From: Verrucomicrobiia bacterium
GTDB taxonomy: Bacteria > Omnitrophota > Omnitrophia > Omnitrophales > Aquincolibacteriaceae
NCBI GenBank assembly: GCA_035495615.1
Contig: DATJFP010000088.1
Location: forward strand, 41,763-105,762
Direction: 5' to 3'
Length of the DNA stretch: 64,000 bases
Position numbers and translations under genes: made by a program
Notes under the pieces: model-generated
What the model was told of the DNA's origin: nothing
Seen by the model: the letters and a program-made list of their open reading frames with translations, nothing else
Databases searched by the model: none
Part shown: piece by piece, positions 1 to 51,411 of the stretch
Position numbering within the stretch: the stretch's first letter is position 1
Layout: the number at the start of each line of letters is the position of its first letter

Positions 1-300
1 AGGCGCGCGCGGCCGCGGAGCGCGCGGTTGATGTCGGTCTGCAGCGCGATCTCCCCTTCCCCGAGGGCTCGCAGGAACTGATACGCGTAGGCCATGACGA
101 TGGGATTGTTCTCGTCGACGGCCGCGGGAATCACCAGCTGCCCGCTGCGCAGGAGCGTCGAGATGTGGCGGGCATAAGCGCGGTAGATCGGGCCCGAGTC
201 GAAAAACTGATAGCCGAATTCCCTGGCCAGAGCCCGGGCGGCTGTCGATTTACCGGCCTGCGCGGGACCCGCGATATTGATGCCTTCGGGCGTTTCCAGA
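1..300 (-). other. Cytidylate-kinase-like P-loop NTP-binding module, truncated by the window edge
   Basis: Direct translation: ETPEGINIAGPAQAGKSTAARALAREFGYQFFDSGPIYRAYARHISTLL. Compare Cmk: ItIDGPxGAGKxTxxkxlAxxLgxxxLDSGAiYRxxA. The frame is still open at coordinate 3. Confidence 0.6.
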
Positions 301-27300: not shown

Positions 27301-30300
27301 GGAATTCCCTCGTCGCGGGCCGTTTCCTCGAACTCCTTGATGCCGGCCTCGATCGCGGTCTTCGCGTCCTCGATGGCCTGCAGGTGCTCGGGATAATCTT
27401 CCTCGTCGAGTTCCATGTCTTCATCTTCGATCAAGGCCTTGTGCTCGGCCAGAAGCTTGTTGTACGGCTTCACCGCTTTTTCCATCAGGATCTGTGTAAC
27501 CTCGCGCACCCGTCCTTTTTTAACTTCCGCTTCCTTTTGCTTGGCCACGCCGATGTTGCGGTGGATCTGCTCACGCGTCGTCCTGATCTCGTCGATGCGC
27601 GCGGTCAGAGGATGGTCCGGCTGCTCGAGGCGCGGCAGCTTCGCGAAGATCGTCTGCGACTCCTCGGCAAGCTCGAAAAGGGCGATCATGTTGTTGACCG
27701 CATCGGCCGCTTCGTTCACCGCGGCCCGCTCATGATCTTCGATGGGCTCCGCGGTTCCTTCCTTGTCGCCGAGCGCCCGCGCCAGGTTGTAATAAGTCTC
27801 GTAATGTTCGTAGAGGGTCGCGCGCTGGTCGGCCGCTTCCGCCGTATCCGCGAAAAGCTGCGGCATAAAACCCTGCTCGCGCAGCGCCTGCAGGTACATG
27901 GCTTCGAGGCCGGGGACCTGGGCTTCCATGGCGCGCAGATCCCGCACTTTGATGAACCACATGGCATAGAGTTCCGAAAAGAGGAAGTTCCCGCCCAGGC
28001 GGTGCGACGAAGTCTCGGCGCGCAATTCAGGGCGGGCAATGCCGCTGACCGCGCCGGGGTCGATGCTTTTGAGCTTTCCGTCGTCGTCCAGGATGAGATT
28101 GCGCCAGACGTCATCGATATCCACGATGCGTTTGTCGTTTCTCAGTTTGACGGTCGCGGCAAGAGCGCGGTGGCGGCGCACGTCCGCCTGGAAGACGGCC
28201 TGGAAAACCGCGGTCTTCTGAGCGGGTTCGATATCCCCGCTCGCGGCGACAGCCTGGAGGATGCGGGCCATGTCCGGGCCCTTGTAATCCTGTTCCACGG
28301 TAAGCTTGCCCGGTTCCTCGGAAACCTGCCGCGTCGGAACGAAGAATTCGCCCAGCACGGCCTGGTTGGCGAGACTGAGGCGCGCCTTCGTGTCGTCGAG
28401 GCTGACGGCCTCGTATTCTTTGGTCACTTTCGTCGGATGGGCTTCGTCGTCGGCGCTCAGCTTGGCGTGGAACCCGGACTTGATGCTGACCGGCAAGGTC
28501 GCTGCCACCTGACGGAGGATGGCCACGACTTCCGCGGGAAGCGGCGCGTTGTTGCCGCGCTCTTCCTTGATGGCATTGTTCAGCGCGCCTTCGATCTTAT
28601 TGAGGACGTTTTCCGCGTGCTCGAGTTTCGGCCGGTCGCCTTTCACGAGATTGGCGTAGGCAATGACGAGTTCGCGCAGGCGCCGGGCCGAGAGGTCGCG
28701 TCCCGTGCCTTCCCAGTTTGCGCGGTTTCCATCAAACCGTTCCCGCTGAGGCACGGACAAACGCGCGAGCATGCGTGCCTGCTGGCGGAGGATGTCGTCG
28801 ATGTCGAGGAAGGCCTGCAGGAATTCGTCCAGATAGGTGCGCAGCGCGGCTTCGTCTTTGGCCGCAATGACGGCCTGAACGTTGGCCAATTTGTTCCGTT
28901 CGCTCCAGACCGCGCCCGCGGCTTCCAGGCGCGACTGCAGGACATCCGGAAAGTTCTTCTTTTCGACTTCGATCTTTTTCTTTCCCGCGAGTTCCTTGAG
29001 CTCGGCCGCCATGTCGCCCAGGATTTTTTTATTTTCCGTCTTGTCCAGGTCCGCGAGGATGCCGTCGACGTCGGCCGGCGTCGCGGCCGAGGTGATGCGG
29101 TCGGTGAATTGGCGTACCAGCGCGGTGCGGGTGTCGTCCTCCTGCCGTTTCTGGTCTTCGAGAGCGCGCTGGCGGGCCTGGGCCTGCTGCACGAGGCGCT
29201 CCTCGACTTCCGCCGGAAGCTTGGCCGCCCGGATTTCTTTGAGCACGGCGGTGATGTTGTCGAGCGTCGCGCCTTCGATTTTCTTTTCCAGGTTTTTGGT
29301 CTTACGGTGGATGTTGATTTCTTCTTCCAGTTCCTGCTGGGCGCCTGTCGAAAGCGCGCTCTTGCGGACTTCGTCCAGGATGCCGTCCAGCACCGCGAGA
29401 TTGGCCACGGTCACGGCCGCGATGCGGCCGCGGAAGGACGCGATCAGCGCGTCCTCGGCCTGCAGTGTTTCGTCAGCGGCCGCGCTCAGCCCGATGCCGG
29501 TTTCTTCGGCCACTACGCCCGGAGGAGGCGTGCTCGGACGGCTCGGCGTCGGCGGAGTGACGCCTGCCGCGCGCGCGAGGTATTCATCGACGACGCTTTC
29601 CAGCGTGGCCTGCTTTCTCCAAACCCGCACAAGACCGTCCTTAATGAATTCTTTCCAGAGATCATGGCCCAGCTTGCGGCGCATGAAGTCCATGAGGACG
29701 GGCCCGTAATGATATTCCGCGGATTCCGGCGCACCCTCTTCGATTTTTCTCTTCAATTTCGTGGCGTGGAGGCTGCGCTTCTGCTCTGACAGCGCGGGGA
29801 AGGTCACGTCCAGCACGACATTGCCGGTCGCCGTTTCCCGCTGAAGGGTTTTGAGTGCCGCATAGACGAAATCGTTGGCCAGCGCTTCCGTGGCATAAAG
29901 CTGGTCCGGAGTGCGCGGGCCGGTCAGCGTGCGGTGCATTTCGTTGAAGATCGCATGGCCGACTTCCTCGATGTGGCGGACAAAGATGTCGGTCAAGCTC
30001 AGGTTCGCGATGTTGAGCGTGATGATGGTCTTCAGCGTCCCCTCTTCGCGGACCATGCGGGCACGGGCCTTCTTGTCTCCGTCATTGCTGGAACGGATGA
30101 CGATCCGGGTGATGGGAACCCGGGTCTTGGGCCCGTAATATTCGCTGCTGAAGCGCGTCAGAAAATCGTTGAGGGTGTAGAGCTTGCCCTTGTAGGGGTA
30201 GACTTTCGCGTACTTCACGATGAAGGCAATGAAATGCGCGCGGTATTTCGCGTTCCACGACGCGTCTTCGGGATTGTGCTTCTGGATCATCTCGACGATC

Positions 30301-33300
30301 TTCGCGCGCACTTCGTCCTGCTCGGCTTCGTCTTCGATGTTTTCCTGCAAGTACCGGTCGATATCGTCCTTGACCTTGTCGGGCGTCATCTTCAACACCT
30401 GGAAAAGATGGTCGGTGAGCGTCCTCACGTTCACTTTACCCCAATTGAGGCGGACGCGCGCCACATTGGCATCCGCGTCATGAATGGCCGTATCGAGATT
30501 GCCTTCGCGCAGCAGGGTCTCGGCCACGGGCTCGCTGAGAATAAGGCCCTTCTTGACCTGTCCCGATTTTCCGTTCGCCGTCAGCCGCAGCAGCTCCACC
30601 TGCATGGGCATCAAAGCGCCGGGCTTTTCCTCCGGGGCCGCCGGCAGCGTGTCTTCGGCTTCGCCCGGTTCCGGCAGGAGTTCTTCTTCGTTTTCCGTGA
30701 CCACGGCAGGCACGGCCACCGGCATTTCGGGGGTCACCGCCGCAACGGGCGCCACTTCGCCCGCTTCGCCGACGATGTCGGCCTGGGCCCGGGCCATGCG
30801 TTCCAGGCTTTCCTGCGTTTCCGTCGGGAGCCCGCTCGCGGCAACGGCGGCAAGAACGCCCGCGGCCGTGTCCGGAGTCATGTTCGTGATCTGCTGTTTG
30901 AGGTCCGCGATCGTGCTCGACATGGCCAGGGACATGCCGCCCTCGGCCTCGGACTTGGTGATGAATTCCCTTCTGGTTTCGTAAGGCCCTTCGAGTTCGC
31001 CCAGGTGCGACACGTAATCGGCGATCTGCCGGTTCACGGCCTCGCGGTCCGCCGCCTCGTACAAGCGCCCGAACTTTCTCTCGATCGCTTTCCGGCGCGC
31101 GTCGATTTGTTCGAGATGCTGCGTCAGGTCGAAATCATCGAGCGAAGCCATGGTCTGGATCTGGTCCAGCAGCGCCTGGCGGTCGAGCGCCTCGTCCAGC
31201 TCCGCGCGGAAGCCGCGGACCGTGCGCAGCACCAGTTTCTTGAAGCTCGCGTCTTTGGCGCGGCGGGCGGCAAGCGCGGCCGCGATCGGATCCTCTTCCG
31301 GCGGCGTCATGCGCAGTTCGGAGCGGCGCTGCTGGCTCTCACGCATTTCCGCCTTGAGGCCGGTAAGCTCTTCCTGCTTGGCCACATAAAGCGCGTCCAG
31401 ATGTTTGAAGCGGTTGTTGTCGGTGGCAAAGGCATTCAACCGTCCCTGGATCTGCTGGTAATGCTCGACGGTAAAGGCCTCGCCGTAATTTTCGCGCATG
31501 GAAGCGGCCGCGGTCCGGATGGACTCGAGATGCTCGGTGAAATCGAAATCGTCGATGTGCTCCATGGACGCGATCCGCGCTTCGAGGACTTCCGTATTCA
31601 AGAGTTCGTTGTCGATGCGTTCCAGGAAATAACCGACGGCGGCAGGGACCAGCGCCGCAATCTGCCGGTCGAGATCCTTGTCGAAGTCCGGCACCTGCAC
31701 CGACATGAGCGCGTCCGGAATCGACGTGTCCGTGCCTTCTTCATTAATATAGCGTTTGGCCGTGACGAGCGCTTCCAGGCGCAGCGGCACCAGGTGGCGC
31801 TGGGCGTCCGCGCCGATCTGCGGGCCGAATTCGTCGATGACAAGATTTTGAGCGGCGACAAATTGTTTGAGGCGGGCCACGGTCACGTCTTCTCCCGCGG
31901 CAAGGGGCTGTCCATAGAACCGGGCCATGATCGCCTTGGCCGGCGTGGGCTTTTTGCCGTGCGTGGCCTGGAACTGCGTCCGCAGCTGCACCAGCCCGTC
32001 CGACAATCTGCCGCGCGCCACGTCCAGGAGGCCGTTGACGCGGTTGGCTTCGATGAGCCGGTTCATGCCCGGCCCTTCGGCGAGAACTTTCCCCGCGGGA
32101 AGAACGGTTCCCACAAGCGTTTTTTGCGACGCCGCTTCTGCGATGGCGCGTTTCACGCGGCCGGCCGCCTCGCGCAAGACGCCGAGTTCCGAGAGGATTT
32201 CCTGCTGAAGGGCGCGGTAAGCTTCGTCGAGAGGTTTATAATTTTCGCGCACCGTAACGAGGCCGCTTTCGTCCTGGGCCGCGTAGGGGTGGTCCGCTGC
32301 GAGTCCTTCGAAGAACTTTTCGAGGACCCGGTCGACTTCCGTGGGATCGTCGGTTTTCGAGGGAAGGTCGTTGAGATTCCGGATCCGGCTCTGAATGCGG
32401 GTCAGCGCGCTATGCAGGTGGCCTTTTTTATCGGGCTGCGATTTGATCCGGGCCAGATTGCCGGCAAGCAGTTCTTCCATCGCCGCTTCCTGGTCCGGAT
32501 GCGTGCGCAGGAAATCCACGATTCCCTTGTTCCCGATAATGTCGGTGAGCCGCGACAGTTCCGCCTCGACGGTGCCGTGCATGTCGCCCTGGACCTGCGC
32601 CAGCATCCCGCTCACTTCAGGCCTGAGGGTTTTCGCGGTTCCGTCCAGCGAGGCCTGCAGCGCGATCTCGTCGAGCCTGGCCGGGGTCATGTCCTGGAGC
32701 GCCTCGTTGTCCATGTGCAGCGCGGTCAATTCCGCCACCACTTTTTTCGAGATCAGAACATGATAAAGGTCGCGGATGTCGGCCGGCATGTCGTCAAAGC
32801 CCTTGCCGCTGGTCGAGGCCCGCATGGCCGCGGCCTTCAGGGCGTCGCCGGTCGTCTCTTCCAGCTTTTTCCCGGTCGCGTCGCCCTGGATGTCTTTCAG
32901 GTACTGGCGGACATTGTCCGCGATGGCATTGCGTTTTTGGGGTGCGAGGACCGTGACCACCTGGGTTTTCAAGTCCGCGGGCACGTTCTTGAGCAGGAGG
33001 AGCATGCGCTCGACCGTGACCACGGCATTTTTCTTCTCGCTGATGTTTTTCATCCAGCTCTGGACTGCGGCGGTCGTGGCCTTGAAAATCGCCGCGGCTT
33101 CATCGGCTTTGAGGGTGAGCTCCTGGCGCAGCGCGTCCGCGCTCTTGATCTTGCCTTCGGCCGTCGGATAATCGCGTCCCGGCTGGGCCTTGGCTTGATC
33201 GAGAAGCGAGAGCACTTCCTGGATTTTGGCCAGCCGGATATCCTCTTCCGTCGGGGCCGCGGCCGATGGAGGCGCCACTTTTCCGGGCGTCTGCAGTCCC

Positions 33301-36300
33301 ACGAAAGAAACGTCATCGTCGTCGGCAAAAGGATTCGCGCGTTCCAGCCTCTTTTCCAACCCGTCTCCGGGGATCGAGGAGGCGTCCCGCGCGGCCTTGG
33401 CCAGCGCGTGCACGGTCTGATCCAAAGGCAGGGTGCGCGTCATCTCAACCAGTTCTTCCATGCCCGGGATCGGCATCACGCGGCCCACGACCGAGATCGT
33501 GGCCAGCGGCTTGCCGGGTTTGTTGGCGAGTGTCGTCGTCCGTATCGTGCTCAAACCGGCAGGCGTGCTCTTGTCGCCGCCGTCGGAATAAACCAGCGCC
33601 CGCGTTCCGGGAGGCACGTCCACCTGGGTGCGGTTGTTGCTGCCCAGCAGAAGAGCATCTCCGGAAAGGAATTCGTCGTGCTTGTGGCGGACGCCCAGAT
33701 AAAGCTCCAGGTTCTCCTGCGTTGTGAAGCGCGGAAGCGTCTCGCCGAAATCTTTGGCCTCCACCTTGCCGTCCGGGAGAATGAAAATGCCGGTGCTGTC
33801 GCCGTAATCGAGACCCAAGCCCGCGTATTTTTTCTTATCCGGATCGGCAATCTGCCGTGTTTCCGGGTATTCCCAGACAAGACGGATCGTGAGGGTGGTC
33901 ATGGCCCGCGAATGAATCTGCCGGGCCCGTTTGGCCTCGGACAAAGCTTCATTGGCCGCATCGACCGCGTCCTCGAGGACTTTCAAGGCGGCCTCGGGCG
34001 TTTGCGCCGCGAGCAGCTTTTCCCGGGTGGCTTCCTTCTCGATGGCGGCGATCACGATAAGCGCGGCCTGCCGCCCGTCCGGCTGCCCTCCGGCACCGTC
34101 CGCCACCGCGATGAGGCCCCGGTCCGGCAGGTTGAGAATGGCGTCTTCGTTGTTCTGGTCCGCCAGCGGTTTATTGATGCGGTACACTGCGGGAGCCGTG
34201 TAAGCCCAGGTCGTAAAACCCGTAGCCTTGCCTTCGATAGCTCTCTTTTTCGCGTCAAAATCATCTCTTACCCAAGGCCTGATCCGCTCCGGAAGCGCTT
34301 CGATCTGGCCTTCGACCGCCGCCAACTCCCCCGCGCTTGAATTCAGCGTCAGCGCGTCGACTGCCGCCCGCACCGGCATGTAACGGCGCCGGTCTTCCTG
34401 GATGCGCTGGGTAATCTGCAGCTTCTTGGCATCGGCCGCGCGGCCGATCTCGTCTTCGAAGCGCTGATAAACGCGCGGCGTGGTTTCTTCTTTGGCGCTC
34501 TCGACGTTTTCGTCGACGATGGCGATGCTGAGGATGTTGATGTCCGCCTTCTGCAAGTCCTGGATAAATTGCCGGAGCCGCTGCTCATCCCTCTTATCCT
34601 TGGCCGCGATCTTTTCTTTCTTGGCCCGTATGGCTTCCTGGACGTCGGCACGCTGCCGCAGCCGCGCATCCGTCAAAATCTTGGCCGCTTCCCCTTCGAC
34701 ATCGGCTTCCGCGACGGTTCTGGGGTCCAGGGCTGTGATCTTGCTAATGGCTTCGAACGCCGCCTCCTCATCCGCGGCAACCCGCGTCCGGATGGCCTCG
34801 TTCTTTTCGGCGAGCCGGGCCTGTTGCAGCCGGGCCGCGGCGTCCTGCGCGCCGTTCAGCCGGTTTTCCAGCGGTGTGACGTCCGAAAACGCATTGAGTG
34901 GGGTCAGCGCATCGACTTTGGGCGTAATGTCCGCTACGATCAGGCCCACGACTTCCCCGATTTCCCGCTTCAAAGCCGCCTGCAGTTCCGTGTCTTCCTT
35001 AATCTGGTCCGCGCGGCTGAGCAGCGCTTCGGCATCCGAAACCTGCGCCGCGGCAACATTCTTGCGGAGGTCTCCCAGGAGCCTGCGTACGTCCGCCGCG
35101 ATGTCGTTGTTCGAGCGCGAACGATCCCCGATCGACTGCCGAGCGGCTTCGAATTCTTCTTTGAGCGATTCTTTGAGATCTTCCCGGTCCGCGACACGCG
35201 CTTCCTGAGCCTGCACGTCCGATTCGTTTTTGACCCGGCGGAGCTGGATCTTGATATCCGCCATCAGGTCGCGGTCGAGGCTCTCGCGCTGCGTGATGGC
35301 CTCTTCCTTGGCTTCCACCTCGCGCAAAAGACGCGCCGCCCGTTCGCCCCGGGCGCCGGTCACGCGCGCCCGCAAGCCCTGCGCGGCGGTAAGGTCGCTG
35401 CGGTCAGTGAGCTGCGCGATCTGCGGTTCGATCGCATCCATGATCTTTTCCGCGGCCGCGTCGATCTCGCCTTTCACCTTGTCTCTCAGTACGGCGCCCG
35501 CGATCTGATCCGCCTGGTCGGCAAGGTCCTGCATGGTGCGGACATAAACGCCGTCGATCGCGGCCGTTTCCGTAATTCTCAGGCGCACCGCGGCGGCGGC
35601 CGTGTCATCGGCCTGGATGCGGCGCTGGATCGCGCCGCTGATGTCATTGGCTTTTTGCGCGAGGCGGTTGGCGCGCTCGGTCTTCGCATTGACGAAACGG
35701 CGGCGCTGCGCCTCGACTTCCTCTTCGGTGCTGAGTTCGCCGAGCCGGTCGAGAGACTCGTCGATGTGAGCGGCGACAAGCACCATTTTGCGTTCGATGA
35801 GCGCCTCGAGAGGGCCGCGCATTTTCGCGTTCTTCAAGCCGGCCAGTTTTTCCGTGACGGCTTCGACGTCCTGCAGCGCGGCCGTTTCCGTGTCAAGGCC
35901 CTGAAGCGCCCCGCGCACGTCCTGGTCGATCGCGCCGTCCTGCCGGATCCGTTCCTGGATCGCGGTTCTTTTCTGCGTGGCAAGATCAAACAGCTCGGGA
36001 ACCGATTCCGCTTCCTGCATCCGCGCTTCCTGCGCGGCAACGTCCTTTTCTTCGTTCAATTCCGTGAGCGCTTCCAGTTTTCCCCGGATGTCGGCCGCTA
36101 CAAGCCCGCGCGACTGCTCGATCGCGGCAACAGTCCTGTCGCGAATGGCCACGGTCACGATTCCCTGCGCCCGGGCTTTCGCGGTCTCAAACGGCTTCAC
36201 CGTTGCCGTGGCCGGCGTTTTGGGAAGGCCGCCGAGGATTTCCCGCGCGGTTTCTTCGTCGCGGCGTCCGCGGTCGCGGATGCGCGTCTTGATGTCGGCG

Positions 36301-39300
36301 GCGAAACCTCCGATGCGCTGACGCTGCCGTTCTTCGGGCAGCCGCGCCACGGCCGCATCGACGTCCGCTTCCGTGCTCTGTTCGTTGGCGGCGAGCGCGT
36401 TCATGGCCGCCTGCGCGTCCCGGATCAGTCTCGAATCTTCTTCTTCACGTTCCCGCAGGAAATCGCGGCGCGCCAAAGCCGCTTGCCGCAATCCTTCAAC
36501 TTCGGGCGATTTGGCGTTCTTCAGCCGGTCTTCCTGGGCGCGGATGTCGTTGACGTCTTCCGCGGCGGCGATTCGTTCCCGGATGTTCTGCACCACGGCA
36601 ACGCGCTTGGCCTCGATCTGCGGCCTCGCTCCTGTTTTCAAATCCTCATAAGGTACGGCTTCTGCCCGCTCGGCATAAGATTCGATGACTCCGAGCGGCA
36701 CGCCGTCTACGCCAAAGCCCGTCACGTCGCCGACCAGCCGTTCCATTGTTCGCTGGTAGTAATCGTAAATCTGGGCTTCCATCTGAGTCCGCTTGGCCTC
36801 GAGCCGCGGGAACACGAAAAGAAGGAGCGCGTGAAGGCTGGGGGTCGATTCGGTTTGAGCCAGGAGGTTCTTTTTCGCGCGCGCGTAGGCGGTTTGTTCC
36901 GCCGCGGCTCCGGCCTCCTGGTATTCTTTCAGCGCGCGGACGAATTCGTAGGAACTCTTCTGGTCCAGGGGCGGCATTTCCGTGGAAGTCAGCATGGCCG
37001 CGGCTTCGGGCACGATCTGGTCCGGCTTGTCGAGCTGTGCCGCCATGGCCGAGATGAGCCGCGATTCGTACTCGGCGAGGGCGGCTTCAGTCGTGCTGAG
37101 GCGGGCGCCGATGCGCGATTGAAGTTCCGAGACAAGAGGCGCGGGACTGTCGGCCGTTCCGGCAAGCGCCGCGGCTTCCTGGCCCAGGCCCTGGAGGCTC
37201 TGGTAATTTTCGTGCGGATCGCCGCGGGTCTGCTCGAGACGCTGGGCAATGTCGCGGAACTTGATCGTGTTATCGACCTGCGGCGTACGAACTTCGCCGG
37301 GCAGCACTTCGAAAAAGGCAATGACCGCCAGGATGGCGTCGAAATTCGCGGCCACATCCCCCATGTGGGGCTGCAGCGCGCCTTGCAGGAGGGTTTGTCC
37401 GCGCGCGGCAATGATGCCCGGAATCTGGGGCCTGTCCGCTTCGGAGGCCGCGCCGCGCTGCGCGTACGTGTCTACCAGGATCTGCGGGCTCATGGCCTGC
37501 GCCGTCGTGGTCTGGATCAGTTGAAACGCCCGGGCCAGCTTCAGGACGTTCAGGGCGTCGTTATTTTCAGGAGAAAATTTCGTGGTGTCCCACGTGATGG
37601 CGGCCAGACGCTCGAAGGAGTCCGCGCGGTTGATTTGCTTGGCCAGCCGGCCGAAGCGGGATTTTTCCGTGCCGCGCCATTTGATCACTCCCCAAATGGC
37701 TCCGGCTCCGGCCGCGAGACCCGCTGCGATTAAAGCGGGCCCGGTAAGATTGGGCGCGTTGACCGTGACGCCTCCTGCTTGTTCCGCCAAATACTGATAA
37801 AGTTCGTAAACGCCGTAAACCGCCACGCCGGCGCCGGTGAGAACTCCCAGGCCGAGCAGAATGCGGTTTCTCCAGACGCGGGCCGTCTCTTCCCGTCTTT
37901 CCAGTTCGGTCTTTCTCGCGCGCGCGCCGTCCTGCTCCGCCGCGGGCAGATCATTGATCACAGCTTCGGTAATATCGGCCGACCGCCGGGCTGCTGCGAC
38001 GGCTGCGCGCGCATCCTCGATCTTCTTGAGAGCGTCGCGCTTTTCCCGGGCCTGGTCCCGCTCGCCGTCGTTTTCGAGATCCGCGAGCACCGCGTCGGTA
38101 ATCTGCGCCGACTGCGTGGCCGTGGCGACCGTACTTCTCGCGGCTGCAAGGCGCGCCGCCTGGATCGCCGTCCTCTTGCCTTCCGCGACTCCGGCGAGCC
38201 TCGCCGCTTCCGTCGTCTGAGCTCCTTCCAGACGCGCCGTCTGCGCGGCCACCTCTTCGATCGTGCTGGCGTCGGTCAATGCCGTCAACTTGCCTTCGAT
38301 GTCCGCCACGATTTGCGTGACTTTGCCGCGGATTTCATCTTCCACCGCCCCGCGAGCGGCCCCGTCTTTGATGCCGGCCGCCAGAGGCAGAAGAGCTTCG
38401 GCGTCGCTTATTTTCGCGGCAGCGGCATCGATCTGTCCGAGCTGTGTCCGGATATCGCGCGCTTTATCCTCGTCACCCCGCAGCCGGTCGCGAATCTGTT
38501 CCACGGCGGCATCCGCCTGGTCTTTCACCTGGATGCGGAGACGTTCCTCCAGACCGTTCACAATGGCGGCGAGCTGATCTTCCGTGGCCGTTTCCAAATC
38601 CAGGGCTCCGATCGCGCGCTTGGCCTCAGCGACCGCGCGGCCGTCCGCTTCGATTCTCGCCTCGATGGCTGCGCGTTTGGCTTCCGCCAATTCCCGCAGC
38701 CGCGCTGCTTCGGGAGTCTTGGCATCTTCGAGGCGTGCGGTCTGCGTCACCACCGATTCGGGAGTGTTGAGTTCGGTGAGGGCATTCAATTTGCTTTCGA
38801 TGTCGGCGACGATCTGCCCGACTTTGCCGTTGATCTGGCTTTCGACACTGCCGCGAAGCGTCGCGTTCTGGATCTGCGCGGCGCGCGTCAGCAGGGCTTC
38901 CGCGTTTTCGATCGTGGCGCTTTCAGGCTGAACCTGCCCGAGATCCGAAAGGATGGCGCCGGCTTTTTCGTTGTCGCTGCGGCCGCGCTCGCGGATCGCG
39001 GCAATCTTGGCATCCGCTTCGTCGCGCACATGATCACGCAGGCGGGCCGGCAGCCCGCTGCGAATGGCTTCAACGGCGTCTTCCGCCGCCGTGTTCACAT
39101 CAATGTCGTCGATCTGGCGCTTGGCTTCGACTATAGCCCGGGCATCGGCCCCGAGCCTGTCGCTGATCGCCTGTTTTTTCTGTCCCGCCAGATCGCGCAG
39201 GCGTCCGGCATCGGCAGCGGCGGCGCCTTCGAGCCGCGCAGCCTGGGCATCCGGGTCAGCCAGCGCATTCAGTTCCGTCATGGCGTTCAACTTGCCTTCG

Positions 39301-42300
39301 ATGTCCGCGACAATCGCGGTAACGCGGGCGTTGATTTCGCCCTCGATCGCGCTCCTCAAGGTTTCTCCCTTGATCTGTTTCGCCCGCGGCAACAAGGCTT
39401 CGGCGGCGTGCACGTTGGCATCGCCCGGAAGGAGGGCCGCAAGATCGCCGCGGATCGCTACTGCTTTTTCATCGTCGCTTCTCAAACGTTCGCGGATGGC
39501 CGAGAGCGCCGCCGCGACATCTTCCGCAATCTGGTCACGCACGCGTTCGGGCACGCGCGTCTCGATGGCTTGGACCTGGGCAGGCGTCGCGGTTTCGGGA
39601 TCGAGCTGGCCGAGGTCCTGTTTGGCCGCCGTGACGGCTTCGCGGTCCGCGGCGATGCGCCTCGTGATGGCGTCCATCTTGCCGCGCGCCAGATCGCGAA
39701 GGCCTGCGGCTTCCGAGGTAAGCGCGTCTTCGAGGCGCTGGACCTGCGTGTCGACTTCGGCCGCCGCGCTCAACTCGGTCAAGGCTTCCAGTTTTCCGCG
39801 GATGTTTTGGACGATCCCGCCCACTTTCGCGTTGATTTCATCCCGCACGGTTTCTCTCAGAGCGGGGTTCTTGATGTCCGCGGTCTCCGTCAAAAGGGCT
39901 TCGGCTTCTTTGACAGCGGCCGTTTCAACCGGCAGCAGTCCAAGCCGCTCACGAATGCTTTGCGCTTTTTGTCCGTCGGTTTCGATGCGCTGGCGGATCG
40001 CAAGCAGGGCCGCCTGCGCTTCGGTGCTCACCTGGCCGCGCAGACGTTCAGCAAGACCGTTCACGACGGCTTCGACATCGGTGGCCGCGGCTTCATTTAT
40101 ATTAAGGCTCGTGATCGCCTGCTTCGCCTGGCTTACGGCGAGCTCGTCCGCCCGGATCCTTCTCTCGATGGCGGCCGATTTTTCTTCCGCAAGCGTGCGC
40201 AGCCGGCCCGCTTCGGACGTGGCCGCGTCTTCCAGCCTCGGCGTAATCGCCGTCACGCTGGCGGGCTCGTTCTGGTCCGTCACGGCATTCAATTTCCCTT
40301 CGATGTCCGCAACGATCGCTTTGACTTTCTGATTGATCTCGCCTTCGACCGCGGAGCGCAGCGTTCCGTCTTTGATCTGCCCGGCGCGGGTCAGCAGCGC
40401 TTCCGCGTCTTTGATCGCCGCCGTATTGGCAATCGCTCCGAGGTCACCCCGGATGGCCGCCGCCTTTTCGGTATCGCCCTGCGTGCGTTCGCGAATCGTG
40501 GCGGCCGCGGCATCCGCTTCGGCCTTGACCTGATCACGCACCCGTTCGGGCACGCGATTGCGAAGGGCTTCTACGTCGTCCACCGCGGCCGTGTCCAGAT
40601 TGAGCGCCGCGATCGCCTGCTTGGCTTCGCGCACGGCGCGTTCGTCCGCGTCGATCCGGTTTTGAATGGCCCTGGATTTCTGCTCCGCCAACTCCCGCAG
40701 CCGGGCCGCTTCCGGCGTCACCGCGCCTTCAAGCCGCGACGTCTGGGCCGTCACTTCTTGGGCCGTGCTGAGTTCCGTCAAGGGCGTCAGCTTCGTTTCG
40801 ATGTCCGCGGCGATCTGGCCGGTCTTGGCATTGATCTCGCCTTCCACGGCCGGACGCAGCACCGCATCTTTGATCTGCGCCGCGCGGGGAAGCAGCGCTT
40901 CCGAATCCGTGAGCTTGGCCGTCGCGGCGGCGATACCCTGCAGGTCCGAACGAATCGCCGCGGCTTTTTCTCCGTCGCCCCGCGTGCGGTCGCGGATCGT
41001 GGCAATGGCCGCGTCCGCTTCGGTCTTCACCTGCTCGCGCACCCGCTGGGGCACCCCATTGCGGAGGGCTTCCACTTCGTCCACCGTGGCCGTGTCCAGA
41101 TTGAGCGCCGCGATCGCCTGCCTGGCGCCGCTCACTGCGAGCGTGTCGGATTCGCCGCGGCCGGAGATGGCCTGAGACTTTTGGCCTGCCAGCTCCCGCA
41201 GCCGGGCCGCTTCCGGCGTCACCGCGCCTTCGAGCCGCGCCGTCTGGGCCGTCACCTGGTCGGCCGTGCTTTCGTCCGTCAAGGCGTTCAACTTTCCTTC
41301 GATGTCCGCGACGATCCGCGTCACGACCGCGTTGATTTCGCCTTCCACGGTCGTCCGCGCGGTCTGGTCCTGAATCTTTGCGGCGCGCTCGAGCAGCGCT
41401 TCCGCGTCTTTGATGTTCGCGGCCGCCGGCACGATCCGTCCGAGATCCGCGGCAAGGGGCCCGCGAAGCGCCGTGTCTTCTTCGCCCCGCTTTAAGTCAT
41501 CCCGCCGCCGTTGAGCCCCTGCCAAAATCACGTCGTAGGCGCTTCTTTCATCCCCGGCGAACGTCACCCCCGTCACAAGCCGTTCCGCTTCATCAAGTTT
41601 CTGCTGCGCCTCGGCCGCTGTGTCCGCAGCCTGGGCTGCGGCAAGCAATCCGACCAGCGAAACAACATTGCCTCGGCGCGTTACCTGCTCTTGTTCGGCT
41701 CGCTTCAAGTCGCGCTGCTTTACGCGCAGGGCTTCGAGGGCTTCGGTATAACGGGCTTCTTCCTGGCCGGCAAATGTGACCTGGCTGCGCAGTGCCGTGA
41801 CGGTCGCGATCGTGGCTTCCGCCTGCGTCGACGAGGTCGGCTCCACGGCCAAAAGAGCCATCAGGTGCCGGACTTTTCCCGAACGTTCGGCTTCCGCATC
41901 TTCGTCCGTCTTGAGACGCTGCGCGGCTTCGCGTGCAAGCCCGAGCGCATCGGTGTACTGCCGCTGTTCATTCCCCTGAAATTGGACGCGGCCTGCAAGG
42001 TCTTCGGCTTCTCGGATCATTTCCTCGGCTTCGGATGCCGTTGCGGCGCGCTGCGCGCCTGTCAGCAGGCTCTGGATGCGGCGCACCGAGGCTTCGCGGT
42101 CCGCGACAAGTGCCCGATGCTCGGCGATGAGTCCGGCCAGCGCGCGCGTGCGAGTGCTTTCAGCGGCGCCTTCCAGCCTTTTTTCCTGGAGGTCGAGGAC
42201 GCCTGTGTCATAAGTGCTCGTGACCTGGGTCCGGATATTGGATTCGATGGCAAGCGCGGTTTGTTCGACTTCCCCTTCGAGCGTCGTGCGCAGGCCTTGA

Positions 42301-45300
42301 TTGCGGACGCGCGCCACGTCCTTCAGCACGGCTTCCGCTTCCGCCAGCGTGGCCGTCGCCGCTTTCACATTCAAATTCGCGAGCGCGTCACGTACGGTCC
42401 TGGCCAGGGTTTCTTCCTGCGCCACGGCTTCCTGGATGGCTTTCTTTTTCTGTCCCGCCAGCGCCTGGAGCCACGGCTGGGCCGCGGGATTGAAACGCCT
42501 TTCCTGCGCCTCGACCGCGCTGACGGCCGCGGTTTCGTCCATCGCGGTCAGCGTTTCCTGGATGTTGTCAATGAGGCTGCCGATCACGCGGCCGACTTCG
42601 CCCTGCCACGCCTGACGCACGCCTTTGTTCTGGATCTGATTGACCCGCTGATAAAGCATTTCCGCGTCGCTGATCTGGGCAGTCGTAAGGTCGAGGCCCT
42701 CGATCGCTTCCATCACGCCTACGGCAATCTCATCGTCTTTGCGGATCCTGTCGCGGATGGCCTGGCGCACGGTCTCGGCTTCTGCGGCAATGCGCGTCTG
42801 GAGAGGTTCCCGCAAAGTCGCGGCCACGGCGTTCACGTCTTCTTCCTTCGCGGTCTTCGGATCGATCTTGCTCAGTTTCCCCAGAACGTCCTGCACGCTC
42901 GCCGCGTCTTCAGTTTCCTGCAGGGCCATGAGATCCAGCACTTCCACGACCTGTTTGTCCCCGCGCACGGCGTCTTGGAGCCGCAGCGGAAGCGCAGTGA
43001 TCGCGGCTTCCACGTCCTGGGAGGCCGCTTGCCCGATCACCATGCTCGTGATGGCGGCGATCGTCTGCGTTTTCATCGCTTCGTCTTTCTGCTCACGGGC
43101 CGTGATCGCGCGGGTCATCTCCTCCACCTTGCTGCTCAGCCTTTTGAGGACGTCTTCCGGAAGGCGGAGGGCCATATCTTCGGGAAGACGGAACATGACG
43201 GCGTTGACCTGAGGCACGGTAGAGGTCTCGACCGGAAGAGCGCCGATCTCGGCAACCAATCCGTCGATAAAGGCGGAGTCGCTCGCCGCCTGGAAACGAT
43301 CATGGACCGCCTTGACGCCGGCCGTGAGATCCGTGCGCAGATTTCCGCGGTAGCCGCGGGTCCGTTCGCTCTGAGCGGCAAGCTCGTCTTCATTTTTGAC
43401 TCCGGCCAGACGCTCGACGACGTTCTGCGCCACCTTCTCCTGCTGCGCGGCCGCGGCCTGTTCGATCTGGTCCCGGTAAGCGCGGCCAGGCGCAAATCCC
43501 AGCAGCCGCAGCCCCTGTTGGACAAAAGCCGAGACGTCGCGCACCGACACCTCGCGCGCGTCGATTTCCCCGATTTGCCGGACAAGGTCTTCCACGGCAC
43601 TATCCATTCTCTGCCGGCTCCGCTGTTCGCGGCTTTCGGCAAGGTCACGCTGTCTTTTCTGTTCACGGGCCTGACGCGCCTGGTCGACCGGCACGGCTTC
43701 GAGTTGTTCGACCGCGGTTTCGCGGGCCTGTTCTTCCGGCTGTGGCACGGGCTTGGGCTGTTCTTCGGCCACTTCGGCCGCGGGAACTGACTGGACCACG
43801 AGCGAATACAGATGCGCAATGTCTTTGTATTCCTGGAGGACGAGCTTGATGACTTCCGTACGCGTCTGCACGGCCATCTCGAAAAGCGCCTGCTTTCTGC
43901 CTTGCGCGGTTTCATCCGCATCGGTCGTCGACTGCTGTTTCAGCGCCTCGAAAAGCGCGCGGATGAGCGCCGGGAGCTGGGCGAGTTTTTCCTGGACGGC
44001 CAGAAGCTGGCGCGCGGTCTGTTCGCTGGACAATTCTTCTTCGCTGGCAAGGCGTAAGGTTTCCAGGGTGTCGCGAAGGCTGTGGAGTCCCTGCACGAAG
44101 TTCGCGCCGTCCTGATAGCCTTCGCTCAGCTTCGAATAAATATCGCGGTAGGCCACACCGATGGCCTGGACCGCGTTGTCTTGGGCCGCCCGCAATTTCT
44201 CATCCAGGCTTCCGAGCGCTTCATCGAGCTGCTGGATGCGTTCGGTGAAACGCACGCGCAGCGCCTCGGCCCGGGTCTGGATTTCAGTGCCTTCATAATA
44301 AGATTCCCGTGACAAGGCAGCCAGCTGCTCCATGACCACGTCCCGAAGCCGCCACAGGGTGTACTGTTCGTTTTCGATGACCCCGGCCGCTTCACGCACC
44401 AGCGGGAATTGCCCCGCGGGCTGCTGCAGCTGGGCCTCAAGCTCTGATATATAGGAAGCGGTGTGCCCGAGCTCCTGGTCCGTTTCGCGTTCGATTGTGT
44501 TCAAACGGCGCGTCAGCACGCCCATGTTATATTCCGCGATTTGCCGGATCTTCTCGTCCGCGGCGGCGCGGACGCGGTCTTTGAGATTCGCGGGTAGGAG
44601 ATCGACCAGCCGGTTGACTTCCGCGGGCGTGCCGACCGGAACCGAGACTTTCGTCTCGATGGCGGCCGTGACTTTTTGCACCTGCAGGTCGTCGAGCTTG
44701 CCCAGGGAAGCGGCGCCGCGCGCAATAACCGCGGCAAGCGCCTGCCTTCTGGATTTCAAAAATTCAATTTCGCTTCGCACGCCGGGATCCACGGCGTCCG
44801 GATTTTTTCCGAAGGCATCTACCTTCGCGTCGAACTGCGCGAGCGTCCTATCCGCTTCCTCCCGGATTTTCCCGATCTGGAGCCGGATCGTGTCGAAGAT
44901 GCTAGTCGTTTCTTCGGTGAGGTTCGGGACGTTCATGAGGCTTTCGGCGACTTCGAGGCTGCGGATCAGCCTCGTCTCTTCCGTTTCGTAGAAAGCGCGG
45001 GCTGCGGTGACTTCGCCCTTCAAGGCCAAAACGCGTTTTTCCGTGAGTTGGATTTTACGCGTCAGTTCCCGGATCCCGGCCTGGGCGTCTTCGGTCACCC
45101 TCTTCAGGGAATCGTCGAGCTCGCGGAGAAGGTCTTCGGGTTCTTCCGTCGTCCTCAATTCCGCGCGCAGGCCGACAGCAAGCTGGGGCATCTGGCGGGC
45201 ATTCCCATTCAAGCTTGCGAGAAGCTGGCTGCGTCCTTCGCTTCCGAGACCCGCAAAATAGGCATCGGGCCGGCCGAGCAGTTCGCCGATCAGGGCCAGG

Positions 45301-48300
45301 ATTTTTCGGACCGCTCCCGCCGACGGAGTCTGCTTGAGTCCCGCCAGCGTCTGTCCCGCTTCCGCGATCGCTTTCTTGGCATCGACCGCCGCGGGCTGCT
45401 GCACGGGTTGGCGGGCCCGCTCGAGCGCACGCGCGATGCCGGGAAGATCGCGGATTTCAGGAGGCAGGGCTTCGAGAGTCTTGGCAATTTCGGCGACTGG
45501 TTCCGGGACCATCTCCGGATCGAGCTCGGGCGTCAGCGAAACATCGAGGGCATGCTGGATATTATTGTAGAGCAGATTCCCTTCTGTCCCCGTGGCCTTG
45601 TCTTCGTAAGAGAGCTTCTTAATAATGTAGTCGCGCAGGTCCGCCATTGCGAGAGCGATCGTGCCGGCCTGAATCTGGCGCGCGGCAAACAGAATCGCGT
45701 GATGGTCATACGTAATGCCCGTCGTATCCGAAACCTTGGGCATGTTCGCGGCGCGGTCTTCTTTCCAAAGGTCCTCATTGCTCATGGCCGCTTCCGGGAA
45801 GGCCTTGTTATGCTGGCGCAGCGATGCTTCCTCAAGCAAATCCAGGACGGCGTTCCGCTGCTGGCCGCCGAGCGCGTTCCAAGCCGCTTCGTCCGACCGG
45901 CGGATCAATTCGATCTGGTCGCGCAGCGCCTGCTGCAACTGCCCGGCCGCCTCTTCCCGCTGGATTTGGGAAGTCCACGCCTGCGGCAATTTATCGAGGA
46001 TCCAACGCTGTACCTGGACCGAATAATCCGTGACTTTCTTTTCCGTGGCCGTGCGCGGAACGGTGAGGCTCATCGGGTCTCCCGGCTGGACTTGCAGCCG
46101 GTCCAGATGCATCAGGAAATGAATGAGCGCGTTCTTTTCCTGCTTCGTCCACGACGTAAGCTCGGAGTTCCACCGCTGAAGCCCCATGAACCGGTTTCTC
46201 GAGAGATCGTAGCGGCGCTTTTCGATTTCCGGACGCGGGCGCTCCACAGCGCCTTCCTGGAACCGCAATTCGCCTTTCAACGCGGCCTGGCCGAGGTCGG
46301 TAACGACGACGCTGATCTGGCCGGGCTGCACCTTGCCGAGCGCTTCCGTGACGGCCGGATCCCTGACCAAGTGCGCATCCACGGGCCCGGAATAATAGTT
46401 GCTGTCGCCGAGCTCCAGCCGGTTCAAACGGTCGGGCTGTTTGAAAAGCCCGCGGGCTTCCGAATCCTGGCTGCGAAGCACCTTCGCAAAAAGGCGCAGC
46501 GCCTGTGTCTTGTCTTCGCCCGTCTGCCACAAAAACTGGTTCGGACCTTTCCGCTCCAGCACGCCGCCGAAACGGTTGACGATCGCGAGGAGACCCTGCT
46601 GGTATTCCGCAGGAATTTCCGCGGCGATTTTCTTACGCATTTCCTCGAGCGCCTGCTCAGGAGTATTGCTTTCGAAGATGCTTTCGACGATCGTCAGGGT
46701 CATGAGGAAAAAGGCGTGCGCGTATTCAGGATCGCGGGCGATGAAATCGGCGGCTTCCTGGCGGAGACCCAGGCTCGCCGCATTCAGAAATTCGCGCGCC
46801 TTGGGCGATTTTTCGATGACCATGTGCCAGGCCGCGAGCTGGAAGCGCGGGTCGCTCAGGCTTTGCTGCTGGGGCGGGAGGAAAGTCTCCACCAGCCGCG
46901 TTTCGAGCGGCATCGGCTTCTGGCTGAGGGCGTCCACGTAAAGCTGCGTTTCCTTGGTGTCGTCGATCTGGCCGTGGATCCGCGGCGCGATCACAAGGAA
47001 AGAATAATCGTTTTCCTTGAGATAGGCCTCGATGCCGGGCGTATGGAAACCACCGGTAATGATCGCCATGATCTGCTGCTTCCCGGATTCCATTTCCCCG
47101 ACCGCTCTCTCGATCAGGATCTTGTCGCGTTTGAGAGCTGCGGAATAATAACGCTCCACGCGGCCAAGATCCTGATCAAGGATCTCCAAAAGGGACGGCA
47201 ATCCATTGGAGAACTGATGTTGCTTTAAGAGCGGTACGAGGAAATTACGGAATGTCTCTGCCTTGAATTCGTCGCGGTATGTGTAGAAAAAGTCTGCGTC
47301 CTGCTTGGTCAGGGTGAAATTGAACATCTTCTGGTAAATCTCGAAAATGCGGAACAGCCGGTCCAGCTGCACTTCCTCTTCGTTGCGGAACAGCTTGTTC
47401 TTGATGTCCCGCTCGAGCGCCTCGATCTCGCTGAAGATCGCGACGTCGATCGAATCGTAGAGCCTCATATATTTAAGGTAGCGCAGGACCTCGTCGTACT
47501 TCTGGGCCAGCTCTTCCTGCCCGGCCCCCTGCGTCGACTGCATGTTCTGGATTTCGACCTGGAGATAGCCGTAATAGTCCGCGCGCTTCATCTTCTTCAT
47601 GCGGAACTGGACCGTGTTGGTCAGAAACTCGGAGAGTTTTTCACGCGTGAGGACGTTTTTCAGGTCGTTGATCAGGTCTTCGATGCTTTTTTCGGCTTTG
47701 TCGAAATCGATTTCTTTTTCGAGATCGATGAGCGAGAGAAGCGAGTGCATGCCCGGATAATCGTAAAGGGCGATGTTTTCTTTGCGGGCCGTTTCCACGA
47801 GATGGCGGACGTAACTCACGAGTTCGTTGCCGCCGGACTGGAAGGCCTGCCGGTAATGCAGCATGTCCCGCAGATCATCGGAGAAAACGAACCGGGAAAC
47901 ATCGTCCATCAGCTTTCCGAGGTCCGCCAGAACTTTTTCGTCTCGGTCTTTGTATTGCAGGGCGTCGAGATAAGCGCGCCTGTTTTCTTCATAGATCTGG
48001 CGGTCTTCCACGCCGTACAGGTTCAGTTCCGGCCGGTCGACGATCGCGAGGTATTCGGGCCCCGTCAAACGGGCTTCTTTCAAAAAGTAATCCGCGACAT
48101 TTTTGCGGGCTTCTTTGTTCGGAAAAAACGAAAAGAGTTCGGTGAAGAGTTCGCCCTCGGCGCCTTCCAGGTTGATCAGTTTAAGACCGTAATTTTTGGC
48201 GAAATAATCAAGGATGCCCGCGATGTTGCGCTGGGCCTCTTCATTTGCATGAGCGTCCTGGATGTGGATGACGATGCGGTCGCGGGAACCCTGGAAGTTT

Positions 48301-48530: not shown

Positions 48531-48704
48531 GAGGATTTGCCGTCCCTATGTTTTGCTGGCCAAATTGACGTGCTAACTTACCGACTACTTAAAAAATTGA
48601 TTTATATTGTTATATTTAAACTATATATCAAAGTTTTTAAACTCACAATAGTATAGACCGAAATAATTGTAAGTTAAATACTTGATAAAAGTTTTTATGA
48701 AGTA

Positions 48705-48733
48705 AGTATAGCCGCCACTTTCTAAATTGTCAA
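48705..48733 (-). promoter_or_regulatory. Candidate sigma70-type promoter for the giant gene
   Basis: The minus strand reads TTGACA (48733-48728), then a 17-nt spacer, then TATACT (48710-48705). It sits in a ~265-bp AT-rich intergenic region, about 175 nt upstream of ATG 48530. Confidence 0.4.
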
Positions 48734-48779
48734 TCGGAACTTTAGGCAGAAAGGGAGTTTAGCCTGGTTTTAAGGAAAG

Positions 48780-48795
48780 CCCCTACAATAAGGGG
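48780..48795 (-). terminator. Short hairpin directly after the stop of the response-regulator gene; weak intrinsic-terminator candidate
   Basis: The minus strand reads AAA-CCCCT-TATTGT-AGGGG-CTTTCCTTAAAA. The stem is 5 bp, the loop 6 nt, and the U-tract is poor. Confidence 0.3.
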
Positions 48796-48796
48796 T

Positions 48797-49228
48797 TTAT
48801 TCTTCGGGATCGTCTTCCGGGGTCTTCTTCGGGGCGAGGTTATCTTCGATGCATTTGACCAGGTCCTTGGTACTGACCGGCTTAGAAAGGGCAGGTTTAA
48901 TGGTAAACGGCCGCCCCCCTACCACTCCGCCGAAGGCTTCGCTTTGCCCCTTGCCCACGGTAGCGGTAAGAAAAACGATGGGGGTGTTATTGATCTTTTC
49001 CGTTTCTCGGATTTCGATGGCCACCTCCGTACCACGCTTGTCCGGCATAATCACGTCCAGAAGAATGAGGTCGGGTTTGAAGTCTTTGGCCGCCTGCAGC
49101 CCCTGGGCGCCTTTGGTCTCCACGCGGACCTCGAACTTTCCGAGGGCTTCCAGGTTTTTTTTGATCATGCTTGCGAATTTTTCTTCATCGTCGATAACAA
49201 GGATTTTTTTCTTTGCCGGGTCTGCCAT
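48797..49228 (-). CDS. Single-domain response regulator (CheY-like receiver)
   Basis: 143 aa. KILVIDDEE...PDLILLDVIMPDKRG...PIVFLTA...IKP gives a canonical acidic pocket, phospho-acceptor Asp, Thr and Lys. AGGAGG lies 4 nt upstream of the ATG. Confidence 0.9.
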   Translation of the reverse strand: MADPAKKKILVIDDEEKFASMIKKNLEALGKFEVRVETKGAQGLQAAKDFKPDLILLDVIMPDKRGTEVAIEIRETEKINNTPIVFLTATVGKGQSEAFGGVVGGRPFTIKPALSKPVSTKDLVKCIEDNLAPKKTPEDDPEE

Positions 49229-49239
49229 GATTCCTCCTG

Positions 49240-50802: not shown

Positions 50803-50877
50803 GACGACACACCGGTCTTCGGGAATAAACCAGATTCAGGAAGGAAATGTTGGGGCGCGGGACGTAGGAAGCGAGGA

Positions 50878-51243: not shown

Positions 51244-51326
51244 TCATCCTCAATGCCTTCGCCGGGAGAGGGCCCGATGTCGGCCCCTAAAATATCGGCC
51301 TCTCTCCAGGGAAAATTAAGCGAAGA

Positions 51327-51402: not shown

Positions 51403-51411
51403 ATTGAATTT

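Follow-up and report, generated by a model that had tools for sequence, protein, structure and literature searches.

Giant proteins of the Omnitrophota are among the largest predicted proteins, and most of their sequence falls into no recognisable family. What fills such a protein, and on which side of the membrane does the filling lie? The question is raised by a 64,000-nucleotide stretch of contig DATJFP010000088.1 (hereafter the window; assembly GCA_035495615.1, a Verrucomicrobiia bacterium that GTDB places in the Omnitrophota), most of which is taken up by one giant gene. A first-pass annotation had proposed that a 167-residue helical module, best conserved in one array, extends in diverged form over about 9 kb of this gene (34400-43500), that it flanks a two-helix membrane hairpin on both sides, and that the whole forms a very long fibre on a single side of the membrane. 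Here we show that the field exists, define its module as a new orphan repeat family under purifying selection, and weigh what the field may do and where its two halves may lie.

The gene is a minus-strand frame that stays open from window position 48545 to position 3, that is, 16,181 codons with zero stop codons. Its probable start is the ATG at 48530 (MIDWQTRRAKPWLRTVALLVALIFIVHDVVWADGGG...). The window edge cuts the gene after 48.5 kb, and the protein length of at least 16,176 residues is therefore a lower bound. Residue numbers (aa) convert to positions as window = 48545 - 3 x (aa - 1). The frame is missing from the listing of open reading frames (ORFs) because it exits the window; its GC content by codon position is coding-like.

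3..48530, minus strand: giant ORF, at least 16,176 codons from the ATG at 48530; exits the window at its left end

On BLOSUM scores, the autocorrelation of aa 2300-3500 rises sharply at lag 167, to 1.58 where the mean is -0.52, and again, as an echo, at lag 334. At aa 2348-3479 (window 41504-38109) 6.8 units lie in register. Tandem Repeats Finder (TRF) detected no tandem repeat at the DNA level in this array. We built a hidden Markov model (HMM) only from the seven good units of the array and scanned it across the whole visible protein. It matched N-terminal of the array (window 43625-42081) with 68.2, 24.3, 10.6, 9.9 and 5.4 bits and, C-terminal of a pair of hydrophobic segments (window 36674-34248), with 84.2, 64.6, 61.1, 31.5, 29.2 and 13.2 bits; the control maximum, from 20 shuffles preserving local composition and from the reversed sequence, was 2.3 bits. 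Upon iteration the HMM converged on 18 full or partial units at aa 1641-4766 (window 43625-34248, about 9.4 kb), across which there is no stop or frameshift. Composition-corrected BLAST of 200-residue chunks concurs, with E down to 1e-17 in both outer blocks, and brought up no second strong repeat family anywhere in the 16,181 visible residues.

41982..43625, minus strand: N-terminal block of degenerate modules (aa 1641-2188), three near-full and two partial units; boundaries from the iterated HMM
41505..41981, minus strand: junction stretch (aa 2189-2347), three copies of a variant sub-repeat of about 58-70 residues (VxFxGxExxxY...), read from the translation
38022..41504, minus strand: core array (aa 2348-3508), six full 167-residue units (one of 166) and a seventh, decaying past its first 130 residues or so
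34248..36746, minus strand: C-terminal block of degenerate modules (aa 3934-4766), six full or partial units by HMM

The core units score 165-245 bits. The final variant copy of the junction stretch runs into the first good unit, and the chunk from aa 2201 matches the array in composition-corrected BLAST. Both peptides that the first-pass annotation had quoted as diverged copies are present without a mismatch on the minus strand (42668-42534 and 35033-34896). Thus its description of the field stands, both in extent and in the rank of the 167-residue array as best-conserved core, and diverged modules, matched outside 38.1-41.5 kb, do lie on both sides of the hydrophobic pair. A still wider similarity, spanning aa 852-6082 in BLAST without composition correction, was rejected because neither the module HMM nor a sub-repeat HMM nor composition-corrected BLAST extends the family beyond about aa 1641-4766.

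The unit is itself composed of three sub-repeats of about 55 residues, visible as secondary autocorrelation peaks at lags 55-57 and 110. Sub-repeats A and C are demonstrably related (hhalign probability 91%, E 1e-6) and B is more distant; matches to an A/C sub-repeat HMM are limited to aa 1735-4738. AlphaFold2 modelled a single unit as all helix, with a mean predicted local distance difference test score (pLDDT) of 93.7, a predicted template-modelling score (pTM) of 0.82, and helices at residues 2-22, 31-35, 38-41, 49-72, 81-91, 97-132, 141-148 and 153-166. When three units were modelled together (pLDDT 91.4, pTM 0.46), the last helix of a unit fused with the first helix of the next, helices 157-190 and 319-355 spanning the unit junctions. 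High local together with low global confidence is as expected of an elongated chain of domains, and the models suggest a rod of connected helical bundles. The helical character that had been assigned to the module is corroborated by these all-helical models and their continuous helices. No solved structure matches the module globally; where parts of it superpose well, at about 2 Å over 55-70 residues, the partners are three-helix bundles.

Identity among the core units is 42-61% for protein and 53-68% for DNA. Synonymous divergence (dS) between units is near saturation at 0.7-2.0, and the ratio of nonsynonymous to synonymous divergence (dN/dS) is 0.2-0.5. Low dN/dS at high dS indicates that the array is old and that its protein sequence has been maintained; the repeats are under purifying selection. 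Across the six core units 38 positions are invariant, mostly hydrophobic residues or Ala with Arg, Asp, Glu and Lys in addition, a makeup that suggests structural conservation.

Does the module have relatives? A word-indexed search with the module alignment found no homologue among 5.8 billion proteins. Exhaustive HMMER over 1.84 billion representative proteins gave two matches (E 5e-5 and 3.5e-4), which we rejected as homologues: both are unrelated repetitive proteins, one a saposin-repeat protein and the other a surface protein with a short NRIAADS repeat. Scans of contigs found nothing in GTDB genomes or JGI contigs, and a profile search of PDB sequences, Ebh and Embp chains included, found nothing relevant. 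The unit had no Pfam match even at E up to 10, FIVAR (PF07554) and GA (PF01468) among the families searched. More broadly, Pfam, NCBIfam and PDB sequence searches of module, hairpin, N-terminal domain and whole protein returned almost nothing. The module thus defines a new orphan repeat family, for which about 1.8 billion representative proteins offered no credible relative.

Orthologues of the giant gene place the field in its evolutionary setting. Comparison of protein segments with 79 loci by tblastn showed that aa 6 to about 700 are conserved everywhere, and gave no match to aa 701-7126 in any of the 79. The next shared region contains a cluster of predicted transmembrane (TM) segments.

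46446..48530, minus strand: conserved N-terminal domain (aa 6-700), seen here in Omnitrophota only; no assigned function
20715..22481, minus strand: conserved region (aa 8689-9277) with the TM cluster aa 8946-9015; first orthologue-shared segment after the N-terminal domain

This second region aligned with most of 13 Omnitrophota loci at E 1e-71 to 1e-103, while 4 of the 13 gave weak partial matches only (E 1e-9 to 5.5e-5). Its counterpart aligns 1:1 and starts at orthologue aa 896-1191. In ten orthologues whose gene start lies within the locus, the conserved TM cluster sits at about aa 975-1400, as opposed to aa 8946 here, so roughly 7,500-7,950 extra residues (about 7,700) separate the two conserved anchor points in our protein. 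From this offset it follows that the repeat field, the hydrophobic pair and a further TM candidate at aa 7127-7146 all fall within a lineage-specific stretch.

The same region measures from about 250 to more than 3,000 residues in the orthologues, and some fill it with unrelated repeats of their own. Locus L020 carries a helical Ala/Glu/Arg-rich repeat of about 40 residues (aa 1276-2776), L017 a 197-residue repeat (aa 676-1201), L036 its own internal repeats (aa 1351-2476) and L019 a 160-residue repeat (aa 2026-2476). In L019 the repeats come after the first TM segments; in L017, L020 and L036 they follow the N-terminal domain and precede any predicted TM segment. All four are unrelated in sequence to the 167-residue module. 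Five orthologues whose N-terminal stretches are long and TM-free were scanned with Pfam, which gave nothing usable for sidedness.

What, then, could the field do? At its C-terminal end it runs almost directly into an enzyme domain.

33291..34160, minus strand: PP2C-type Ser/Thr phosphatase domain (aa 4796-5085), starting 30 residues past the last module

The domain matches PF13672 (PP2C_2) with 26.1 bits against a gathering cut-off of 24, and NCBIfam Stp1_PP2C at E 1.4e-8. The profile match covers its N-terminal half; of the metal-binding Asp motifs NED (4799-4801), DGAGG (4816-4820), SDGG (4987-4990) and DDDD (5075-5078), the C-terminal ones were judged by eye. A kinase domain was not detected in the visible part of the protein.

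The closest system to the field is that of the giant adhesins Ebh of S. aureus and Embp of S. epidermidis (PDB 2DGJ, 6GV8, 6GV5), which are helical-bundle rods. Embp repeats of 170 residues (F-repeat) and 125 residues (FG-repeat) each form two three-helix bundles, measure about 70 Å, and make up arrays that are rod-like by small-angle X-ray scattering (PMC7587433). The likeness lies in how the module would work, not in family membership. Spectrin-type repeats and Exo70 rods likewise have bundles joined by continuing helices, elongation being suggested in our case by high pLDDT with low pTM. Unlike the spectrin repeat, with 106 residues and three helices, the module has 167 residues in three long and three short helices and does not match PF00435; Exo70, although the top Foldseek match (E 0.015, TM-score 0.18), is alike in class only.

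On these grounds we favour, as fairly probable, the view that the field is a lineage-specific Ebh/Embp-like spacer or rod of helical bundles in a giant envelope protein of Omnitrophota. About 18 copies of the 167-residue all-alpha module, in which each sub-repeat would be a long helix followed by a short one, would be chained by helices continuing from unit to unit into an elongated rod or scaffold. The Gly/Ala-rich hydrophobic pair would interrupt the rod and tie its middle to the membrane, and the job would be mechanical: holding N-terminal domain, membrane and the PP2C domain fused at the C-terminal end at set distances. If each unit measures about 7 nm, as the Embp analogy suggests, 18 units might reach 100 nm or more, as an order of magnitude. 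Rod shape, spacer function and topology are what we infer from the models and these comparisons. Could the field instead have no function of its own, as tolerated filler left by successive duplications in a giant gene's hypervariable linker? All orthologues lack it, the region varies among them in length and in unrelated repeats, and the outer units are decaying, all of which filler would explain. Yet the unit sequence has long been maintained, as dN/dS of 0.2-0.5 at near-saturated dS indicates, and 38 positions stay invariant across six core units, the fold is confidently predicted, and 9.4 kb have accumulated neither stop nor frameshift. We therefore consider filler highly doubtful.

Where the two halves of the rod would lie depends on the hydrophobic segments of the protein.

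37806..37862, minus strand: hydrophobic helix 1 (aa 3562-3580, ILLGLGVLTGAGVAVYGVY), uncharged; Kyte-Doolittle 1.83, summed Hessa delta-G +1.76 kcal/mol
37749..37805, minus strand: connecting loop (aa 3581-3599, ELYQYLAEQAGGVTVNAPN), no Lys or Arg
37683..37748, minus strand: hydrophobic helix 2 (aa 3600-3621, LTGPALIAAGLAAGAGAIWGVI; then KWRGTEKSRFGRLAK), uncharged 22-residue run; Kyte-Doolittle 1.78, summed Hessa delta-G +3.05 kcal/mol
36747..37682, minus strand: non-repeat segment of about 310 residues (aa 3622-3933), between helix 2 and the C-terminal block
27108..27167, minus strand: strong single TM candidate (aa 7127-7146, IIIAGAVVGVAAVIAGGYIW); Kyte-Doolittle 2.39, summed Hessa delta-G -0.05 kcal/mol
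48441..48497, minus strand: N-terminal hydrophobic segment, signal peptide or signal anchor (aa 17-35); Kyte-Doolittle 2.04

Kyte-Doolittle and uncharged-run scans recovered two uncharged runs (37862-37683) where two membrane helices had been annotated (37680-37865). Both are Gly/Ala-rich with GxxxG-type motifs, a GxxxG itself in helix 1, and their predicted insertion is borderline, at +1.8 and +3.1 kcal/mol where aa 7127-7145 has -0.05. Like glycine-zipper or GxxxG hairpins, they are a pair of uncharged helices rich in Gly and Ala, each about 20 residues long, with small-xxx-small motifs and a short polar loop between them; they differ from such hairpins in the lack of a Pfam Gly-zipper match at E up to 10, in the marginal insertion energy, and in charges and TM parity that leave the topology ambiguous. 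The 425-residue segment containing the pair (aa 3509-3933) had no homologue, and its non-repeat part, aa 3622-3933, matched neither the module HMM nor Pfam. The N-terminal segment has positive residues before it and the motif VWA/DGG after it, and is kept in orthologues as an uncharged run of 17-19 residues. In the whole visible protein about 41 overlapping windows of 19 residues have a summed Hessa delta-G below 3.5 kcal/mol, probably representing 25-30 distinct segments, with clustering at aa 8946-9015, 11354-11644 and 12044-12760. Within aa 7127-7250 (window 26796-27167), the TM candidate gives way to a Pro-rich stretch of some 100 residues with repeated short motifs such as DPxLL and LRPxP, which looks like an extended linker.

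Three features of the protein bear on sidedness. Characterised bacterial PP2C enzymes are cytoplasmic, and no hydrophobic segment intervenes between the end of the C-terminal block (aa 4766) and the PP2C domain. Within 15 residues of the pair there are 5 and 6 Arg or Lys residues on the outer flanks and 0 in the loop (19-22 residues), a distribution that, by the positive-inside rule, would put the flanks in the cytoplasm and is the opposite of that expected if the loop were cytoplasmic. Finally, three uncharged runs of at least 17 residues, namely the pair and aa 7127-7146, lie between the N-terminal anchor and the conserved TM cluster, versus none (nine loci) or two (L049) in the same interval of ten orthologues, always an even number. 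An odd number of crossings would invert the conserved downstream membrane domain. A further segment, aa 3731-3749, is unlikely to be the TM helix that restores parity: it contains two charged residues and its delta-G is +6.8 kcal/mol.

A true two-helix hairpin would leave both repeat blocks on the same side, and we give such a same-side arrangement a roughly even chance. If the fibre that the first-pass annotation proposed is spelled out, export of the chain would start from the N-terminal signal, the two blocks would together form a single fibre in the periplasm or outside, and helices 1 and 2 would make a TM hairpin that dips into the cytoplasmic membrane and back. Uncharged runs of 19 and 22 residues with a 19-residue polar loop and GxxxG-type motifs would suit such a hairpin, and the conserved signal-like N-terminus would suit export. 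The protein has no cysteine, a bias that it may share with many secreted giant adhesins. Moreover, for giants of this kind West-Roberts et al. predict an extracellular location of most domains (bioRxiv 10.1101/2023.11.21.568195). However, the helices are only marginally hydrophobic, the PP2C domain would come to lie outside the cytoplasm, the cytoplasmic loop would be free of Arg and Lys with 11 of them on the outer flanks, and together with aa 7127-7146 there would be three crossings before the conserved cluster. PP2C adjacency, charge distribution and TM parity thus independently disfavour the periplasmic form, which we regard as unlikely. What stands of the earlier claim is that the module field flanks two hydrophobic helices; that the whole is a fibre on one side is not established.

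The other same-side arrangement has both blocks in the cytoplasm, the pair running in-out-in with its short loop exposed, and the N-terminal segment not exporting the next 3,500 residues. It agrees best with the positive-inside rule, keeps PP2C cytoplasmic and both hydrophobic segments as TM helices, and accords with the positively charged flank that precedes the conserved TM cluster in all orthologues. It ignores the conserved signal- or anchor-like N-terminus, which is oriented N-in, and its three crossings still conflict with parity; we find it rather doubtful. Some hydrophobic helical hairpins, those of pore-forming toxins, are stored and then insert into another membrane. The pair could similarly rest outside the cell's own membrane, either as a buried soluble core or as a hairpin stored for an outer or prey membrane, which would agree with the marginal insertion energies of +1.8 and +3.1 kcal/mol and with the predatory or host-dependent life described for Omnitrophota (bioRxiv 10.1101/2023.11.21.568195). 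If neither helix spans, aa 7127-7146 becomes the sole remaining crossing; but one is still odd and does not repair parity, soluble helical proteins seldom contain uncharged runs of 19-22 residues, and Pfam and homologue searches of the segment found no similarity to a toxin family. This makes such a resting pair very unlikely. A single net crossing at aa 3562-3621, with the N-terminal block periplasmic and the C-terminal block and PP2C cytoplasmic, is the sole model that fits the N-terminal signal, PP2C, charge bias and TM parity at once, and we hold it tentatively, as possible.

Several points weigh against our reading of the field as a membrane-tied spacer rod. The searches found no homologue of the module, and the alignments behind its predicted models hold only the protein's own repeats (16 and 4 rows). 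Each topology model breaks at least one indicator; the model with one net crossing needs one of two clear hydrophobic segments to be non-spanning. West-Roberts et al. themselves call TM predictions for these giants unreliable (bioRxiv 10.1101/2023.11.21.568195). An Embp-like role in binding or adhesion is, moreover, inseparable here from a pure spacer role. The boldest form of the rod, in which one module family on both membrane faces makes a continuous transmembrane rod that couples a distal N-terminal contact with host or prey to a cytoplasmic phosphatase, is in our view quite improbable. To our knowledge, no such phosphatase-coupled, two-face rod signalling architecture has been described.

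To which kind of gene does the field belong? The N-terminal 845 residues have 49 homologues, of which those with a named source are almost all from Candidatus Omnitrophica/Omnitrophota, and the N-terminal domain is present at 77 loci in Omnitrophota metagenome-assembled genomes. The domain has no Pfam or PDB match in sequence searches; its invariant motifs (aa ~60-570, window 46835-48365, minus strand) are IVIHIQDAHANEEAQ, TGGFHTPGIE, R468 and D469, and may be akin to the GxxH motifs of the TIKI/TraB/ChaN/erythromycin-esterase superfamily. Upstream of the giant gene, all neighbours (window 48797-62676) are on the minus strand: a PAS histidine kinase with a receiver domain, an S33 hydrolase, an AMP-binding enzyme, a cyclic-nucleotide (cNMP)-binding patatin phospholipase, a SPOR protein and a GH1 glycosidase, with a tRNA gene among them.

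51327-51402, minus strand: tRNA-Ala(CGC), among the upstream neighbours

The order of patatin, AMP-binding, hydrolase and SPOR genes is common to L001 and L002, the two loci with gene calls, both of which also have PilZ and YajQ genes; the full order there is SPOR, PilZ, YajQ, patatin-cNMP, AMP-binding enzyme, hydrolase. From the N-terminal homologues and this shared upstream order, the gene therefore belongs to the class of giant Omnitrophota proteins. At L001 (10001-18886) the syntenic orthologue, in a genome of 37% GC, is split into six consecutive ORFs in shifting frames, probably by assembly indel errors and not at true gene boundaries; that of L002 is split into 1,297 and 7,903 residues with a short overlap.

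Giant Omnitrophota proteins have been described with many TM helices and tandem-repeat scaffolds (bioRxiv 10.1101/2023.11.21.568195; 10.64898/2026.06.07.730766). Like them, ours comes from the Omnitrophota and has a long ORF, of at least 48.5 kb, in which many TM helices are predicted and the N-terminal region contains no domain that could be identified. Also shared are PilZ genes nearby (at L001 and L002) and repeats that persist at the protein level while the tandem signal in the DNA has dissolved. The criterion for the class is a gene of more than 90 kb and a protein of more than 30,000 residues (bioRxiv 10.1101/2023.11.21.568195), as compared with 48.5 kb and 16,176 codons of visible ORF in a gene cut by the window edge. 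The Archaeovorin and Dockerin types are distinguished in the same preprint, and a 'tandem-repeat scaffold' class and a Pfam-dark class in the other (bioRxiv 10.64898/2026.06.07.730766). Archaeovorins combine glycosyl transferase, methyltransferase, GH, peptidase and NUDIX domains, and the Dockerin subtype has dockerin and TSP3 repeats (bioRxiv 10.1101/2023.11.21.568195); neither domain set was found in the visible protein. Unlike most members, the visible 16,181 residues showed no SecA_DEAD at Pfam E <= 0.01, although it may lie beyond the window, and no C39 or S8 peptidase, dockerin, TSP3, glycosyl-transferase or NUDIX domain; the repeat, too, differs in belonging to no Pfam family and having no homologue. 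The only Pfam matches in the visible protein are PP2C_2, a cytidylate-kinase-like P-loop (aa 16089-16125, window 171-281, minus strand; PF02224, 34.9 bits; PDB 1q3t, E 1.8e-4) and a weak ARMT1-like match at about aa 14262-14372. The last two are folds of typically cytoplasmic enzymes.

The composition of the giant gene is also unusual. Positional base frequencies predict about 159 Cys codons in the 16,181 residues, and there are 0; the orthologous giant ORFs contain just 0-0.2% Cys. Neither of the two preprints searched on giant Omnitrophota proteins mentions this trait (bioRxiv 10.1101/2023.11.21.568195, 10.64898/2026.06.07.730766). GC content is 61-67% in the giant gene (window 1-46000) as against 50-55% in the upstream neighbours (48600-64000). 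Part of this offset reflects amino-acid composition (Ala 12.8%, Arg 8.8%), with GC at first and second codon positions raised; third-position GC is 0.72-0.85 in the gene, where it tends upward along its length, versus 0.60-0.70 in the neighbours. The L001 orthologue shows the same offset, about 42% vs 37%. Opposite the gene, the plus strand (window 1-48000) is open for 750-1,940 codons at a time. We rejected these long ORFs (750-1,900 residues) as artefacts that arise antisense to a GC-rich gene; naive ORF calling would yield about 10 false plus-strand genes there.

In conclusion, our study defines a new, confidently modelled helical repeat family, and shows that thousands of residues can separate two conserved anchors within one gene family. 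With so many residues between the anchors, the linker from the N-terminal domain to the first TM cluster appears from these alignments to be a site of lineage-specific growth, for which gain here and loss in the relatives are both possible. Comparing the parity of TM counts with orthologues offers a simple test that exposed an inconsistency in the naive topology. The most interesting point is whether one module works on both faces of the membrane. If the two blocks lie on opposite faces, the protein would amount to a transmembrane scaffold of an unusual kind, with a phosphatase attached. If they do not, it would correspond to the Ebh/Embp rods, in bacteria of a lineage that is diderm, ultra-small and host-dependent.

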